Positions 1,620-18,498 of a stretch of DNA of 18,498 nt are shown in pieces. Position 1 is the stretch's first letter. Every line of letters starts with the position of its first letter. Source of the DNA: a virus (taxonomy: Duplodnaviria; Heunggongvirae; Uroviricota; Caudoviricetes); IMG/VR virus record IMGVR_UViG_2657245081_000006. One strand, given 5' to 3'. The position numbers and the translations under genes are program-made. The notes under the pieces are model-generated. The model was not told the origin of the DNA. It saw only the letters and a list, made by a program, of their open reading frames with translations, and ran no database searches.

Positions 1620-1674
1620 ATGCCTGGCAGTTCCCTACTCTCGCATGGGGAGACCCCACACTACCATCGGCGCT
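1620..1674 (-). rRNA. 5S ribosomal RNA, 3'-terminal 55 nt only (truncated by the N gap)
   Basis: Reverse complement of 1620-1674 reads CGCCGATGGTAGTGTGGGGTCTCCCCATGCGAGAGTAGGGAACTGCCAGGCAT, which is the 3' end of E. coli 5S rRNA. In E. coli K-12 kgtP is adjacent to rrfG, so this is probably the rrfG homolog. Confidence 0.85.
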
Positions 1675-1684
1675 NNNNNNNNNN
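1675..1684. other. assembly gap (run of 10 N)
   Basis: Literal nnnnnnnnnn in the sequence; it interrupts the 5S rRNA gene where the rest of the rrn operon would be expected. Confidence 1.
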
Positions 1685-2938: not shown

Positions 2939-3166
2939 TTACTGGCAGCGTCTGAATTTATTCCCGTACCCGCCGTTATCCTTCGCCAGACCCGCCAGAA
3001 CTAACTGAGTCAGTATTAACTGGCACCGGGCTTCGCTTACTCCGGTAGTTCTCGTCATCATGCGTGGCGTTACCCACTTGTCAGCAGGTAAGAAATGAAG
3101 GACTGCGGCGGCGGTTTCTGTCATATCTTGCTGTTTTAGCATGTCTTTTTCCCTTCTGGTTAACAT
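2939..3166 (-). CDS. small winged-helix-like protein (PapI/FaeA-like by eye), 75 aa; better SD before internal Met at 3142 (67 aa)
   Basis: Motif VLHFLPADKWVTPRMMTRTTGVSEARCQLILTQLVLAGLA looks like a winged helix-turn-helix; AAGGGA precedes the ATG at 3142. Family assignment is by eye only. Confidence 0.5.
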   Translation of the reverse strand: MLTRREKDMLKQQDMTETAAAVLHFLPADKWVTPRMMTRTTGVSEARCQLILTQLVLAGLAKDNGGYGNKFRRCQ

Positions 3167-3263
3167 GACATACCAATAACTCTTGTCTAAAAATCCAGCA
3201 AGATAAAAAGTCAGTATTCACGACCACCAGCGTGTTTACTGTACTGCACCAAGTTTACAGGTA

Positions 3264-3290
3264 CAAAAAACCCGCTCAGTGGCGGGTTTA
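3264..3290. terminator. bidirectional intrinsic terminator
   Basis: aaaaaacccgc-tcagtg-gcgggttt: 5-6 bp GC stem flanked by an A-run on one side and a T-run on the other; the minus-strand reading gives gcgggtttttt. Confidence 0.6.
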
Positions 3291-3418
3291 AGTTGTGTGG
3301 CGAAGTAACCACTCTTAACACACTAATAGCATTTTTGTTATAACACAAGTAGCTCATTCAGTATTTTTAGAATCTTGACTTTCTTAAGCACGGCGAACTC
3401 TGAATACCAAACATAAAA

Positions 3419-4036
3419 TCAATTATCTTCCAGGCCGGATGCTATCAACGAAAGCCTCTCAAAAAACGCTGTAGCAGCCTTGTCCAAAGTTGAATAAGTA
3501 CTGTATTCTCCGTGTTCGGGACCAACCACTACCCATGGTCGTCTTTTTGGGATTCGGGACTTCTCAGAAATCACTGTTCCAGATATACCAATATCAATTG
3601 TTACACCTGTTATTATTTTCTCTTCATCTCTTTCCCTGAACTCAATTGCCATAAATGCCGTTTTTTTTCGTTTCCCGTTTTTAAAAAAATCAAATAAAGC
3701 AAAGCGATGCTCATTAAAATCAACACCCCATCGTCCTTCAGGATAAAGGGCATGAAAGTTGTCATTTACGCTCTGCATCGTCTCATAAGCTTTAACTTCT
3801 AAATCTCCATAGTGCATAGATACCGCGCAGGAGTCACTGGGTAACTGTATTTTCCCAAGATTGAAAACCTTTACTGCTCCAGAACTATGGCATCTTGCCC
3901 GCAATTTATCCCCATTTATACTAATCGGAGAAATATTCCTTAATGTTCCGGGCTGGCTCCCTCCTAAGTAAACGACTGTTAAAGATTGCTTATTTTCAAT
4001 TGCATCAACTAATACATGCTCTACATTTTTATCCAT
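3419..4036 (-). CDS. hypothetical protein, 205 aa, AT-rich cargo gene immediately downstream of Q (no family recognised)
   Basis: ORF 3419..4063; start moved to ATG at 4034-4036 because GGGAGG lies 5 nt upstream (MDKNVEHV...). Sampled lines are about 37 percent GC against about 60 percent in neighbouring prophage genes. Confidence 0.7.
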   Translation of the reverse strand: MDKNVEHVLVDAIENKQSLTVVYLGGSQPGTLRNISPISINGDKLRARCHSSGAVKVFNLGKIQLPSDSCAVSMHYGDLEVKAYETMQSVNDNFHALYPEGRWGVDFNEHRFALFDFFKNGKRKKTAFMAIEFRERDEEKIITGVTIDIGISGTVISEKSRIPKRRPWVVVGPEHGEYSTYSTLDKAATAFFERLSLIASGLEDN

Positions 4037-4037
4037 A

Positions 4038-4074
4038 ATAACCTCCCGATGAACAGGTATCATCAGGAGGTTAT
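4038..4074 (-). promoter_or_regulatory. 15-bp stem / 7-nt loop hairpin sequestering the Shine-Dalgarno of the 205-aa gene
   Basis: Plus strand ataacctcccgatga-acaggta-tcatcaggaggttat. In the minus-sense mRNA the arms pair over 15 bp with one G-U; the SD GGGAGG lies in the 3' arm and the stem ends 1 nt before the AUG. Confidence 0.55.
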
Positions 4075-4111
4075 AATAAAATATGATTATTTACTTTGAT
4101 TGAATTTATTA

Positions 4112-4483
4112 CTATATGTAACAATCAATTTCTAAAGATACCCCCAACATTGCCAGACAACCGTCAATAAACCCTTCAGCTTTCTGCAGTCTGATAACAA
4201 CCTGATTAAGTGATATCCCCAGTTTTACCCCCAACGCCCGTAATGTAACCCCATACACATAATACATTTCCAGTAATTCGTATTGATACGGTTCCTTTTT
4301 CTTAAGAACTGTCATTGCAGAGCTAATGATCAGGCCATCGTCATCGCTACATTGCGGGCGGGATTTTACTTTCGAAGGAATTAATCCCTTAAAACCTGCA
4401 GCAACAGATGACCATTCCACATCCTCGTGATTATTTGCCACCCATGCCCCCCAACGTTCAAGAACCATTTGAATATCACGCAT
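4112..4483 (-). CDS. late-gene antiterminator Q, QuuD/phage-82 type (Phage_antitermQ family), 123 aa
   Basis: MRDIQMVLERWGAWVANNHEDVEWSSVAAGFKGLI... closely matches my recollection of DLP12 QuuD (YbcQ). Start chosen at ATG 4481-4483 with GGAGA 6 nt upstream. Confidence 0.8.
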   Translation of the reverse strand: MRDIQMVLERWGAWVANNHEDVEWSSVAAGFKGLIPSKVKSRPQCSDDDGLIISSAMTVLKKKEPYQYELLEMYYVYGVTLRALGVKLGISLNQVVIRLQKAEGFIDGCLAMLGVSLEIDCYI

Positions 4484-6326: not shown

Positions 6327-6716
6327 TCAGGCAGCTGCACCCGCCGTTTTCTCGTACTTACTGATAGTGATCTCGACCTTCCCTTCCGGGATAACCGGTC
6401 CCCACTCCACCAGCATTCTTTTCACCTGACTGTCGTCTTCCCACACCCCCGCGTGGGTCAGGGCGTCAAACAGCGCCTTGTTATAGTTGTCCAGATCGCG
6501 GATCCTGTTATCCGGAGGAAACAACACGATCTCCACTGAAGCAGGTGCCGACGTTGGTTTCGGCAGACGACGTAACTGCTCAACTATTGCTGCACACGCC
6601 GCGCTCTGGAATTTGCGCCCCGCCGCGCTTATCAGGCTCTTACCTGCAAACGCCACTTTGTTGGGGTGTCGCCAGTACGTGTTCACGCTGGGCGGAAAAG
6701 GCAGTATTAGCTTCAT
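6327..6716 (-). CDS. rusA: Holliday-junction resolvase RusA, 129 aa
   Basis: MKLILPFPPSVNTYWRH...RDLDNYNKALFDALTHAGVWEDDSQV matches the RusA pattern (PxxPxxNxYxR, DLDN, D-D); ATGA overlap with the upstream gene. Confidence 0.85.
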   Translation of the reverse strand: MKLILPFPPSVNTYWRHPNKVAFAGKSLISAAGRKFQSAACAAIVEQLRRLPKPTSAPASVEIVLFPPDNRIRDLDNYNKALFDALTHAGVWEDDSQVKRMLVEWGPVIPEGKVEITISKYEKTAGAAA

Positions 6717-7039
6717 ACTTTCAGGCCCCTCTCATGTAACCAGTGGGCTGCACGCAACCTGGCGTTCTCCTCACCGGCAAGCAGTGCGCGGATGATACCG
6801 ACCGCCTCGCTGTCGTCGTCCTTCACCGCGGTATGAAGCGTGATGCCCCGGGCCACGCCACGCTTTATCGTGATGACGCCTTTTTTCTCCAGTGCGCGAA
6901 GATGCTCCACCGCTGCATTCACTGAACGGTATCCCAGCATGGTTGCCACCTCCTGATTGGTTGGCGGGAAGCCACGTTCTTTCTGATAAGAAATCAGCAT
7001 ATCCAGCACCTGCTGCTGGCATTGAGTTAACGTCGTCAT
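6713..7039 (-). CDS. LexA N-terminal DNA-binding-domain-like protein (no peptidase domain), 108 aa
   Basis: LTQCQQQVLDMLISYQKERGFPPTNQEVATMLGYRSVNAAVEHLRALEKKGVI resembles the LexA winged-helix DBD; ATGA overlaps at both ends. Confidence 0.6.
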   Translation of the reverse strand: MTTLTQCQQQVLDMLISYQKERGFPPTNQEVATMLGYRSVNAAVEHLRALEKKGVITIKRGVARGITLHTAVKDDDSEAVGIIRALLAGEENARLRAAHWLHERGLKV

Positions 7040-9172: not shown

Positions 9173-9393
9173 GCCGCACCTCCGAGATGCTTCATGTTTT
9201 TTCCGGAGCGAAAGGCTATAAGCGGCATACTGACGCGGTAATTACGGCCCAGCGGTTCACAAATCACCTTCTGACATTCACGGTCAACCAGGCTAACACG
9301 TAGAACATGCCCTGCAGGCGTGGTGTACCACTGACCGGGGCGAGGACAACGGAAAGTCTGATTGGTAAATCGTTTGAAAATATTCCGGATCAT
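9169..9393 (-). CDS. hypothetical small protein, 74 aa, translationally coupled between the Rha-domain gene and the O-like gene
   Basis: ATGA overlaps at both ends (9390-9393 and 9169-9172); no family recognised. Confidence 0.5.
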   Translation of the reverse strand: MIRNIFKRFTNQTFRCPRPGQWYTTPAGHVLRVSLVDRECQKVICEPLGRNYRVSMPLIAFRSGKNMKHLGGAA

Positions 9394-10538
9394 TTGCGCC
9401 CCCTTACCTCTGAAGAGTTCAGCGACGAATGAATAAGACGGGCAAGAAATGCCGCATCGTTAATTCGGTCATACAGACTTACAGCCAGAGGTGATTCAGC
9501 TTTTTCCAGCATGGGATAAAGCTGCTGCAACCAGACCTGATGAATTGATGAAATGTAGGAATAGAGAACGCTGGCGTTATGTGCAACGTCGCTCGGTACA
9601 GCGGGCTTTGAAAGCTGTTTCTCCATCTGGTTAAAGGCATTGATGTATGCCTCTTTGAACTGGGCAGCACGTTTACCCGTGAAACCCATAGCAAGAAACG
9701 CAAAGCCGTCGCGGGTTATTTGATAGCAAGGTAGTTTGCGGCCTGTGCAATCGGTGTAATCACTCACCGAAAAATTGCGGGCAGTGAATGATGCGGAACA
9801 TTCAAGCGTGCGGATCTTTTTCAGTACATCGTCATGACGTTTGGAGAAGAAGTTGGCAACAGCCAGGGATGAAGTAACAGCCTGACCATCAACGATGGCA
9901 ATTTCAGGTTGAGTGAGGGTTGGGATCGTAGCCATGATGGCAGTCTCCGATAACAGTGAATTACCTTCACCACCGGAAACGCCAATTTCGCTGGTGGTGA
10001 ACTGAACGGGGTTGGCGTAACCGGCGTTATCGGAAACCGGCGCACCTTTCGGTGCCCCCGTCCAGCCCACCATAATTTGGGTGTGCACAGACGCAGACGA
10101 TAAAAAAGACGCTGGCGCGTCATATATCGCCGATAACATTTCCAGGACGCCAATCCCGACACCCGCTTTATAAGGTGCCTGAACAGTGTAACGTCCCGGA
10201 ATGGCAGAATCAATGTGCTGGTGGTCCTTCACACTCAACAAAATCACGCCTGAATTTCCACAAAGGACTAAAGCACTCATGCGGGTAGTCTTTGCGAAGA
10301 TAGATAACGCGCTGTGTTTCTGGCTCCCAACGAATAACATGGACATAAAGCCCTCTTCCGTCACGAAACCAGCGGTTAAGTTCCTGCACAACTCGCCCCC
10401 CACAGTCAGGTAAAGTTCTCTGTGGTTACTTACAGCCAGGTGATTTGGTAATCTGCATTCATGCCGTAACAACAGGTGTTCAGCGACGCTGACCACCAGC
10501 TGTTGCGACAAACGGTTATTTGCCGTTAAACTGTTCAT
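9390..10538 (-). CDS. protein with C-terminal Rha (phage regulatory protein Rha) domain and an unrecognised about 200-aa N-terminal region, 382 aa; alternative start at 9935 would give a 181-aa Rha-only protein
   Basis: Residues about 211-308, IVDGQAVTSSLAVANFFSKRHDDVLKKI...YQITRDGFAFLAMGFTGKRAAQFKEAYINAFNQME, are the Rha signature. ATG 10536-10538 overlaps the cII-like stop (ATGA). Confidence 0.6.
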   Translation of the reverse strand: MNSLTANNRLSQQLVVSVAEHLLLRHECRLPNHLAVSNHRELYLTVGGELCRNLTAGFVTEEGFMSMLFVGSQKHSALSIFAKTTRMSALVLCGNSGVILLSVKDHQHIDSAIPGRYTVQAPYKAGVGIGVLEMLSAIYDAPASFLSSASVHTQIMVGWTGAPKGAPVSDNAGYANPVQFTTSEIGVSGGEGNSLLSETAIMATIPTLTQPEIAIVDGQAVTSSLAVANFFSKRHDDVLKKIRTLECSASFTARNFSVSDYTDCTGRKLPCYQITRDGFAFLAMGFTGKRAAQFKEAYINAFNQMEKQLSKPAVPSDVAHNASVLYSYISSIHQVWLQQLYPMLEKAESPLAVSLYDRINDAAFLARLIHSSLNSSEVRGRK

Positions 10539-17509: not shown

Positions 17510-17929
17510 TTACTCATCATCAATAGATGATACGCAATATTTATTTTTAAATTTAAGGTTCTTTGGCGTAACTTCATCAGAGATATCAAAACCGTCCAGA
17601 ATTCTATTGAATGTAGCTTCTGGCATATCATCATGAACAGAAATCTCACCCGATCGCTGCTTTCTAACCATGTTATCCACTCGCCAAATTATAGCTTCAG
17701 CGTAAACAACATAACTTGGATGCTTGATAAAGCGATGATCACCAGAATTCAAGACGCAAGACGGATCGTGGGGGACACCATCCTTGATACTAGAAATATT
17801 AACAACTAAAACACAATAACAATCGTTAACGGGGTAATAAACAGGATCATTACAAATCACATGAAGATGATTGCATGGCCCAGTTGGGGCAAGCACAGTT
17901 CCTTTCCTGTATGGCTGATAATCCGTCAT
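17510..17929 (-). CDS. hypothetical protein, candidate toxin partner of the Panacea-domain gene, 139 aa
   Basis: ATGA start/stop overlap with the upstream Panacea gene (17926-17929); AT-rich; CYCVLVVNISSIK and WRVDNMVRK segments loosely resemble MazF/PemK-like strands by eye only. Confidence 0.55.
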   Translation of the reverse strand: MTDYQPYRKGTVLAPTGPCNHLHVICNDPVYYPVNDCYCVLVVNISSIKDGVPHDPSCVLNSGDHRFIKHPSYVVYAEAIIWRVDNMVRKQRSGEISVHDDMPEATFNRILDGFDISDEVTPKNLKFKNKYCVSSIDDE

Positions 17930-18498
17930 GATAATTGCAAAGAAAATTCCTTAAGTTTCTGAGATTCTTCCATTTTGCCAATTATGCGATTAGCCTCATC
18001 CTCGCTTTTACCCTCACTGATCAGCATTTCTTTCAGGTCTATAGGCTTACGAGAATTGCCAGGATCGTGCCACTCTGGACAAACGCTTTCTAGATGCGTC
18101 ATATTTGCGAGATCAAATCGGTTCATATGCCCATACCGAGAATAGATTTCATCTAAAATCCGGATATCTGCACGACTCAATTCATCAAAGACCTCGTCTG
18201 CATCCATTTCCCTCGGATCTGAACGCAACGATACATTATGCCCGTTCGTCTCTATCAAGTTGTACCAGTAGTCACCAATGCCTTCAGCCTTACCGCGAAT
18301 CAAGTTCAGCGTATTCGACATGACTGGTCCAAATTTCATAGAGTAAAGGCTATCTTCGCCGATCATCCTGCCATGCTTCAAAATCGACTGGCGGTTAGAC
18401 AGATAGAGCAACTTCATCAATTTCAGATATGCCATGCGCCCACCTCGCTTAAGAAGTAGGTATGCAGCCATTTGAGCTACTTTTTCTTCGCAAAACAT
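17926..18498 (-). CDS. Panacea-domain (DUF4065, SocA/PanA-like) protein, 190 aa; start codon is the last 3 nt of the window
   Basis: N-terminal ...MAYLKLMKLLYLSNRQSI...SMKFGPVMSN matches the Panacea core (LKLxKLLY ... GPV); AT-rich. Confidence 0.7.
   Translation of the reverse strand: MFCEEKVAQMAAYLLLKRGGRMAYLKLMKLLYLSNRQSILKHGRMIGEDSLYSMKFGPVMSNTLNLIRGKAEGIGDYWYNLIETNGHNVSLRSDPREMDADEVFDELSRADIRILDEIYSRYGHMNRFDLANMTHLESVCPEWHDPGNSRKPIDLKEMLISEGKSEDEANRIIGKMEESQKLKEFSLQLS

Follow-up and report, generated by a model that had tools for sequence, protein, structure and literature searches.

What is encoded by the single gene that directly follows the antiterminator gene Q in the virus record IMGVR_UViG_2657245081_000006 (Caudoviricetes), and what could it do for the element that carries it? 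The question was addressed on a stretch of 18,498 nucleotides (nt) of this record, referred to below as the window, in which a prophage region carries after Q an AT-rich open reading frame (ORF) for 205 amino acids (aa), here called the cargo gene. An earlier reading of the sequence (the original prediction) had proposed a foreign, late-expressed single-gene insertion and a candidate factor for phage defence, superinfection exclusion or host manipulation. The product is best regarded as a WYL protein with a new architecture and a large, uncharacterised family of its own, and this family consists of autonomous single-gene mobile units. The best overall explanation, held at about even confidence, is a mobile, stand-alone WYL protein that binds nucleic acid and acts as a conflict factor.

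The ORF runs from an ATG at 4036 to a stop codon at 3419, and the same 618 nt are annotated in RefSeq, where the protein (WP_000360285.1) is labelled 'WYL domain-containing protein' or 'hypothetical protein', the former in newer records. A Shine-Dalgarno (SD) sequence, GGGAGG, is located 5 nt before this ATG. An alternative in-frame ATG at 4063, which would extend the product to 214 aa, is without an SD sequence; in the second Escherichia coli allele described below it is out of frame and opens a short ORF that terminates shortly after the main start. Here every phage gene is on the minus strand, and the stop codon of Q is separated by 75 nt from the cargo ORF on the same strand, which confirmed the expected single 205-aa ORF after Q. 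The expected contrast in base composition was also real, but the figures given for it (37% against 60% GC) were wrong: the cargo ORF has 39.6% GC, compared with 42% for Q, 50% for the small ORF beyond the cargo, 48% for the methyltransferase gene, 56% for the DUF968 gene and 48% for the whole phage part. The gene order in complete genomes is Q, cargo, small ORF, methyltransferase, (tRNAs, AraC-like gene or stx), holin and lysozyme. This agrees with the proposed slot between Q and the lysis genes, although the lysis genes themselves lie outside the window; complete genomes place lysis genes or tRNAs after the methyltransferase.

The cargo protein is covered end to end by phrog_8498 (PHROGs, E=3e-126), which has no annotation. 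The whole-protein family had no match in Pfam, NCBIfam or PADLOC, or in a direct sequence search of the PDB, and no characterised family in Pfam, NCBIfam, PADLOC or PHROGs claims the whole protein. The original statement that no family could be assigned did not hold for the N-terminal third, which is a WYL domain. Generic WYL models of PADLOC gave E=1e-3 for the cargo protein and 8.5e-7 for the homologue P0059, and comparison of the family profile with the PDB matched the WYL domain of DriD (E=1.6e-4) through the motif Y-x-G-G-S-x-P-G-x-x-R-E-x-x-P. An AlphaFold2 model, based on an alignment with 71 homologues and with a mean predicted local distance difference test score (pLDDT) of 82, consists of two domains with a disordered, variable linker between them, and the N-terminal domain has the Sm/SH3-like five-strand β-barrel by which the WYL domain (PF13280) is defined. 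In the profile alignment, Y23, S27 and R33 fall on Tyr168, Ser172 and Arg178 of DriD, which are among the phosphate contacts in crystal structures of DriD with single-stranded DNA (ssDNA) (PMC9186387). Conservation was computed across 201 family members with a median identity to the query of 32%; Y23 was conserved in 99%, S27 in 94% and R33 in 100% of them, and the most conserved positions were this motif together with A47, K56 and F58 (94-100%). K56 and F58 are presumably the counterparts of DriD R204 and W206, as judged from motif order only. The N-terminal domain is thus a divergent but genuine WYL domain, and by analogy with DriD it probably senses ssDNA.

The C-terminal domain was modelled alone with a pLDDT of 78 and a predicted template modelling score (pTM) of 0.70, and is laid out as a helix, three strands, a disordered insert (aa 134-166), two strands and a helix. 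The structure check proposed with the original prediction thus yielded a two-domain model whose C-terminal domain is without a confident match to a known fold. No WCX domain was recognised, BrxR, CapW, DriD and PafBC all being missing among the best 60 structure matches of this domain; no match at E<0.02 was obtained in a viral structure library, and no enzyme fold was present among the structure-search matches. The conserved residues of the domain are structural or basic (G/W102-103, K119, G121, K125, R166 and P167), and no conserved set of acidic, His, Ser or Cys residues was found in it across the 201 members. Because the C-terminal domain has neither an enzyme fold nor conserved residues of a catalytic type, the cargo protein is regarded, on the model and the alignment, as non-catalytic. 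No helix-turn-helix (HTH) family was found in Pfam, and in the model the barrel follows a single helix (aa 3-15). As HTH and WCX are both missing, the protein cannot work in the known manner of a DNA-binding transcription factor. In the proposed mechanism, the ligand of the WYL pocket would be a short single strand of nucleic acid, with ssDNA the likeliest, as for DriD, CapW and PafBC, and the basic, non-catalytic C-terminal domain would probably assist this binding. The action would be stoichiometric rather than enzymatic: the protein would bind, block or recruit.

Comparison with known systems was used to place this architecture. DriD, CapW, BrxR and PafBC are HTH-WYL-WCX regulators of about 290-330 aa, have an N-terminal HTH or winged HTH and a WCX or dimerisation domain, and adjoin the operon that they regulate. 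The cargo protein resembles their sensor half, a WYL domain with a DriD-type ligand loop, but is without the other two domains; its family is of about 195-205 aa and has different neighbours in every context. It fails the HTH and WCX features and has no adjacent regulated operon, and is therefore not a member of this group. WYL1 (RspWYL1), an accessory protein of Cas13d, is likewise a WYL protein that is no classical HTH repressor, and it works by binding single-stranded nucleic acid and modulating another activity. Beyond the WYL domain, the family is unrelated by sequence or fold to the defence proteins catalogued in PADLOC.

Family size was estimated by an exhaustive profile search with clustering at 50% identity, which yielded 954 clusters at E<=1e-3, 608 at E<=1e-10 and 191 at E<=1e-30. 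Nearly all members are stand-alone proteins of about 190-205 aa, and the named ones are mostly from marine or environmental Gammaproteobacteria; among 50,697 sequenced phage genomes only two contain a homologue. About ten independent genomic contexts were inspected (Table 1), and every one of them was mobile or accessory DNA: prophage slots, integron cassettes, and toxin-antitoxin (TA) or defence islets. None was core chromosomal, which is the outcome that the original prediction had needed from its neighbourhood check. No conserved neighbour gene was found across these contexts, and the downstream ORFs of L004, L013 and L014 are mutually unrelated. The small ORF beyond the terminator tR' in the window was tried as a partner and rejected, as it is a backbone gene of prophages with or without the cargo. 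One homologue, P0029 (a Dokdonella-type gene), has an identical 5' leader and attC site in arrays L010, L011 and L012 and different flanking cassettes in each, and canonical attC sites, GCCTAAC...GTTAGGC, are present in these arrays. These homologues are ORFs bounded by attC sites (RYYYAAC...GTTRRRY) in different arrays and are thus integron cassettes, a status that is not claimed for the E. coli copy. Since the gene moves as a single integron cassette, it must function alone, and this autonomy argues against a BrxR- or CapW-like regulation of an adjacent operon. Like integron cassettes, exclusion genes at the λ rexAB position and the genes of P2-type hotspots, the family is autonomous, promoter-poor and compact.

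Zinc ribbons and transmembrane helices were the only fusion partners recognised in the family. In rare, long members, transmembrane helices were predicted: at the N-terminus of P0203, P0219 and P0220, with a charged helical segment behind them in P0203 and P0219, and at the C-terminus of P0167, after three zinc ribbons. These fusions, which are independent of one another, suggest a membrane tethering in some lineages. PY3_2 of Pseudoalteromonas phage PY3 and P0145 are fusions of the family protein with a further domain of about 150 aa ('domain X'). In Pseudoalteromonas luteoviolacea (L013; 54% identity, E=8e-61) this domain has a gene of its own, next to that of the family protein, and it is also present in the upstream neighbour of the homologue in L021. 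Domain X has 166 homologues and no Pfam domain, and it was not found in the window. Its occurrence as a fused or an adjacent unit defines a two-part minority subclade. TA pairs need a conserved adjacent partner, whereas the cargo family is without one, domain X being confined to this subclade. The membrane fusions and domain X may point to the outputs of the family. As a separate observation, the early region of the Spongiibacter prophage L006 encodes, at 2306-2869, a protein with a Pfam Tad6 domain (PF25188).

The distribution of the gene was surveyed in 5,426 complete E. coli genomes. It was present in 74 (1.4%), always on the chromosome; 52 carry the window allele at >=99% identity, with 100% identical copies among them, and the remaining 22 carry a second allele with about 78% DNA and 72% protein identity to the first. 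The N-terminal half of Q is 82/DLP12-like and its C-terminal half (4112-4325) is distinct; the latter was found in exactly 52 of the genomes, a number equal to that of the >=99% cargo allele. The second allele adjoins the 3' end of a Q gene in both examples inspected (L016 and L017). Between the alleles, the synonymous substitution rate (dS) is 0.81 for the cargo gene, with a ratio of nonsynonymous to synonymous rates (dN/dS) of 0.23, and dS for Q is 0.80. Because the two dS values are equal, the cargo gene and Q are read as having co-diverged, with the cargo under purifying selection. The ratio is lowest in the WYL domain (dN/dS 0.13), intermediate in the C-terminal domain (0.23) and about 1.3 in the linker.

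The AT-rich segment, which the original prediction had limited to one gene, proved to be larger and takes in the C-terminal half of Q (Table 1). Homology is lost over 4325-3320 relative to prophages that have the same N-terminal half of Q and another cargo, and over 4489-3288 relative to other Q types. Where other prophages share the N-terminal half of Q, the slot is occupied by an unrelated gene for 148 aa in the opposite orientation (phrog_3152), and where the Q type differs, by one for 141 aa (phrog_4748). The Q-proximal slot is a genuine variable-cargo site, as expected for a foreign-looking single-gene insertion. Two direct copies of the tR' hairpin flank the phrog_4748 gene in Ayreon (L009; 2980-3018 and 3654-3697) and likewise in L008, which suggests that recombination at the terminator brings in or swaps the cargo. 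The strict linkage to Q would be accounted for by entrapment of the cargo between the DNA-binding half of Q and the cognate promoter site, because a working phage cannot afford to separate the two. The same linkage and the co-divergence in both E. coli alleles could instead point to a regulator of the early-to-late switch, in which the Sm-like WYL barrel would bind pR' leader RNA or the ssDNA of the paused complex and modulate Q; leader RNAs of pR' can be functional Hfq-bound small RNAs (sRNAs) (PMC7547250). Outside E. coli, however, the family is found in cassettes, CI or integrase sites and terminase-portal slots with no association with Q, which makes a Q-specific regulatory role unlikely; sister prophages with functional late regions hold unrelated genes in the slot, and entrapment is the simpler account of the linkage. 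A switch regulator was therefore given very little credence.

Translation of the cargo gene is likely to be constrained by its leader. The 5' untranslated region (UTR) can fold into a 14-bp hairpin (Table 1) in which an anti-SD-like AACCUCC pairs with the SD-containing GGAGGUU, with a minimum free energy of -26 kcal/mol (z=-5.25; 0 of 200 shuffles equally stable). The hairpin is retained in both sequences of the second allele (-19.3 and -21.6 kcal/mol). Its arms are 25/28 identical between the alleles, compared with about 66% in the region just upstream; three substitutions fall in the stem, and the pairing survives two of them (C-G to U·G and U·G to U-A) but is lost at an internal position with the third. 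On this computed fold, the pairing of CCUCC with GGAGG should keep translation of the cargo low, and the hairpin might also serve as a weak terminator after Q. A near-consensus promoter on the plus strand (TGAACA-16-TATAAT, 10/12; 4050-4077) was observed inside the hairpin; it points antisense into the 3' end of Q, is reminiscent of λ paQ and appeared weaker in the second allele by inspection. Low GC content, mosaic boundaries and a frequency of 1.4% in complete genomes would also be expected of a gene without function, or in decay, that persists only because Q and its target site enclose it. Such a hitchhiker is nevertheless extremely improbable: dN/dS is 0.23 at a dS of 0.81 with the strongest constraint on the ligand-site domain, the ORF is intact and the 5' UTR structure conserved in both alleles, and the 954 family clusters share the invariant motif.

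The hairpin and T-run downstream of the cargo gene had been described as a bidirectional terminator bounding the insertion, and were identified here as the prophage's own late terminator, tR'. Its 24 nt at 3265-3288 are identical to the hairpin after Q in Ayreon, where a terminator is annotated, and in L008; it is common to many prophages without the cargo gene and appears in the computed fold. It was missed by a consensus terminator scan, probably because the stem reaches into the T-run. On the plus strand at 3161-3297, the enterobacterial sRNA STnc130 was matched in Rfam below its gathering score (31.6 bits against 55, E=0.013), in a stretch that overlaps tR' and, on the other strand, the beginning of the small ORF; over the cargo region, Rfam gave no match at threshold. 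In Ayreon and L008, Q is followed by TTGCAT-17-TAAGAT, an AACGAT hexamer that we take to be the λ pause element, the hairpin AACCCGCCACTGAGCGGGTTTTTTT, a cargo gene and a second hairpin copy. The variable region from Q to the lysis cassette is shared by the cargo gene of the window, stx1/stx2 and the phrog_4748 cargo of Ayreon. The stx2 genes of L017 lie far downstream, past the small ORF, the methyltransferase and tRNAs, whereas the cargo gene precedes tR'; the cargo of Ayreon and L008 follows a Q-proximal pR'-tR' unit, whereas that of the window precedes tR' and probably pR' too. Being upstream of tR', the cargo gene is therefore not in an stx-like position, and with pR' probably beyond it as well, its position is not that of a Q-dependent late gene.

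The position of the late promoter pR' was approached by comparison of alleles and loci. Q-binding elements lie between the −35 and −10 hexamers, and Q normally engages 16-25 nt past the start site (PMC4914094). The candidate pR' (Table 1) includes TTGTGTTATAACAAAA (3348-3333), the only invariant non-coding block between the alleles, which stands beside a 36-nt indel, and its TA-T-T hexamer is directly followed by a shared leader, GTTAAGAGTGG. At the equivalent position of L007, TTTACA-16-TATGCT (10.6 bits) is the best promoter of the interval and abuts the same leader. In L007 a terminator is located right after Q and the cargo is on the opposite strand; the pR' of L007 must therefore be downstream of the cargo slot. 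Consensus and position weight matrix (PWM) scans for a promoter of the cargo gene's own gave only non-conserved, AT-rich, chance-level matches. The best of them, ATGATA-17-TATTAT (4063-4035), was rejected because its start would fall inside the ORF, and between the alleles the Q-cargo spacer differs by an 11-nt indel and shares no promoter at a conserved position. From these comparisons it is probable that pR' lies downstream of the cargo gene, which would then be the last of the delayed-early genes, transcribed by read-through from Q.

The original prediction had assumed late expression at a very high level, as for stx, driven by pR' after antitermination by Q. In support of such a late-operon moron, the gene is placed after Q and ahead of the lysis genes, and one Stx2a prophage has it ahead of stx2 as well; the stretch from the cargo to tR' is unusually poor in consensus promoters, which leaves a downstream pR' unproven; Ayreon and L008 have different cargo after tR'; and long leaders exist, as in Sp5, where pR' is constitutive and 258 nt distant from tR' (PMC7547250). 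Yet the cargo is upstream of tR' and stx downstream, the Q-cargo spacer is interrupted by the indel and has no positionally conserved promoter, and the only invariant non-coding block comes after the cargo, at the position of the strong promoter of L007, whose pR' must itself lie downstream of the slot. No pause or Q-binding signature is visible after Q in the window, and the SD hairpin argues against high output. The moron model was judged improbable on these grounds. Its variant, with pR' upstream and the cargo in a constitutive pR'-tR' leader that is expressed in lysogens too, requires a placement of pR' that is itself unlikely. Very high late expression is established under neither placement of pR', and the claim was not upheld for a gene that is upstream of tR', has no conserved promoter of its own and has its ribosome-binding site in a stable hairpin.

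The biological role is the least certain part of the mechanism, in which the cargo protein would be a phage-host conflict factor. The surroundings of homologues are of a conflict type, comprising a TA-rich array, a GmrSD/PemK island, a ParE islet, CI-like or integrase neighbours and an Ntox16 cluster. Proteins that do harm when overproduced are typically under tight translational control. Exclusion or an abortive-type defence of the carrying element is the likeliest single role by analogy, although this assignment is tentative; it was ranked first because of the TA, restriction, CI, integrase and cassette neighbourhoods and the tight translational control. The main rival is a counter-defence role, in which the cargo protein, made together with Q, would decoy or mask ssDNA as rolling-circle replication and packaging yield it, so that the WYL repressors CapW and BrxR would not derepress CBASS and BREX and RecA/SOS would be kept silent. 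The ligand-site motif of the ssDNA-sensing WYL regulators is kept while the HTH and WCX outputs are gone, the E. coli copy belongs to the lytic (pR/Q) transcription unit instead of a lysogeny module, and the sensing of ssDNA and of restricted infection by host WYL repressors is documented (PMC11662680; PMC13622015). A sponge should be abundant, however, and the stable SD hairpin throttles translation; integron cassettes, TA islets and sites adjacent to CI or integrase fit a host- or element-protective cargo better, and homologues are scarce in phage genomes. Counter-defence was accordingly considered doubtful.

Several results weigh against the preferred explanation, that of a stand-alone WYL conflict factor expressed by read-through from Q. 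The Pfam WYL model (PF13280) scores 16.3 bits (E=0.0096) against the cargo protein, below its gathering score of 21.8; the two-domain arrangement is uncertain in the whole-protein model (pTM 0.53); and, with respect to the known WYL regulators, the classic W-Y-L triplet is replaced and the DriD contact R176 is not kept in the family. The hexamers of the candidate pR' reach only 3.6-5.1 bits by PWM, and the roughly 130 nt between the cargo and tR' (3290-3420) have a σ70 score below that of 98% of shuffles; the position of pR' is thus only partly settled, and the candidate was kept, at reduced confidence, as a comparative assignment. A non-catalytic protein of 205 aa offers no obvious effector for defence, and PADLOC-DB v2 matches nothing beyond its weak generic WYL models. 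Expression with Q, and not in the lysogen, equally fits a pro-phage role. The literature search found no paper on WP_000360285.1, on its family or on an HTH-less mobile WYL protein. More tentatively still than the defence role, the family may be an unrecognised class of single-protein immune or counter-immune modules, in which the WYL domain would read single-stranded nucleic acid, the C-terminal domain would provide the output, and domain X or a membrane anchor would be added in some lineages; the class would have spread by integrons and come to occupy a recombination-proof slot between Q and its cognate promoter, in one Stx2a prophage upstream of stx2.

Table 1. Features of the window and loci carrying homologues of the cargo gene
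Feature or locus	Position	Strand	Basis or description
Cargo ORF, 205 aa	3419..4036	minus	ORF list and sequence; phrog_8498 end-to-end match
N-terminal WYL domain, aa 1-66	3839..4036	minus	One helix and a five-strand Sm/SH3-like barrel in the model; motif Y23-x-G-G-S27-x-P-G-x-x-R33
C-terminal α/β domain, aa 87-199 (~115 aa)	3440..3778	minus	Separate model
Hairpin TAACCTCCTGATGA / TCATCGGGAGGTTA, 14 bp, 7-nt loop	4039..4073	minus	Fold computation
Antiterminator Q gene	4112..4483 (or 4498)	minus	PF06530, E=5e-48
Mosaic AT-rich exchange block, 37.8% GC	3320..4325	minus	Q C-terminal half, cargo and ~100 nt downstream
Candidate pR' with Q-binding element	3320..3348	minus	TTGTGT (3348-3343)-17 nt-TAGTGT (3325-3320)
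Late terminator tR' AAACCCGCCACTGAGCGGGTTTTTT	3265..3289	minus	Hairpin and T-run, 130 nt beyond the cargo stop codon
Small backbone ORF (phrog_331), first gene past tR'	2939..3166	minus	PHROGs match
DNA methyltransferase, late-region phage backbone	1736..2788	minus	PF01555, E=2e-42; PADLOC MTase_II, E=2e-152
Scaffold gap of 10 N	1675..1684	unstranded	Sequence; left-hand side not contiguous with the prophage
L004			Same-strand small-gene array rich in ParE/Phd, HicAB and BrnTA pairs; homologue has attC-like flanks
L010			Array starting next to an integrase fragment; L011 and L012 are two further arrays
L006 (Spongiibacter prophage)			Homologue between large terminase and Rha
L018			Prophage terminase-portal accessory cluster, contains Ntox16 toxin
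L014			Homologue directly downstream of a 138-aa gene at the prophage repressor position, divergent from cro
L019			Homologue next to integrase
L020			Homologue in a GmrSD/NYN/PemK island
L021			Homologue in a ParE islet flanked by housekeeping genes
Pseudoalteromonas phage PY3 (P2-like gene layout)			Homologue between integrase and repressor
Domain X	L013 768-1223; L022 2606-3115; L021 3945-4535		

With regard to the remaining rows of Table 1, the product of the 138-aa neighbour in L014 matched a CI repressor model below threshold (20.9 bits against 22), and the small backbone ORF encodes 75 aa in the window and 67 aa according to the RefSeq annotation. In the O113:H21 strain FWSEC0010, the Stx2a prophage has the order Q, cargo, small ORF, methyltransferase, tRNAs, stx2A and stx2B. 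To the left of the scaffold gap, the 55 nt at 1620-1674 (minus strand), which we take to be a 3' fragment of 5S rRNA, gave no match in Rfam, and the ORF at 1-1401 is presumably kgtP, recognised by its protein sequence only. The adjacency of kgtP was ruled out as a prophage end by the 10-N join; the two parts were put together in scaffolding, at an rRNA repeat, and the junction is no integration site.

Three further features of the prophage were noted. At 9990-10178 (minus strand), Rfam matches to the C4 antisense RNA (82.8 bits) and the Hfq-binding sRNA IsrK (61.5 bits) adjoin each other in the 5' part of an ORF with Ash and Rha domains (9390-10538); this looks like a P1/Gifsy-like, antisense-controlled antirepressor module in a lambdoid prophage. 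At 17510-18498 (minus strand), a SocA/Panacea antitoxin domain (PF13274, E=2e-19) was matched in a 190-aa protein whose gene shares 4 nt with the next ORF downstream, which encodes 139 aa and is without a Pfam match; the two are likely, from domain and gene arrangement, to be a PanA-type TA pair at the early-left end of the prophage. A 108-aa protein encoded at 6713-7039 (minus strand), in a nin-like region between the Dam methylase and RusA genes, consists of a LexA DNA-binding domain alone (PF01726, E=3e-19), without the S24 peptidase domain, and could be a phage-encoded, non-cleavable LexA mimic.

WYL domains are understood almost only as the sensor half of HTH-WYL-WCX factors that switch DNA-damage or anti-phage operons. 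The family described here keeps the sensor pocket, drops the known outputs and moves alone, and therefore a WYL domain can act without the known form of transcription control. It offers a small and tractable test case for WYL sensing in vivo and for the action of a non-catalytic sensor, since the protein has only 205 aa, informative point mutations can be predicted and E. coli lysogens that carry the gene occur naturally. The position of the E. coli gene is an example of an accessory gene that is genetically locked to a phage regulator and carries a conserved translational throttle. One allele lies in the interval between Q and stx2 of an O113:H21 Stx2a prophage, where toxin output could be affected by any influence of the cargo on induction or on transcription of the late genes.

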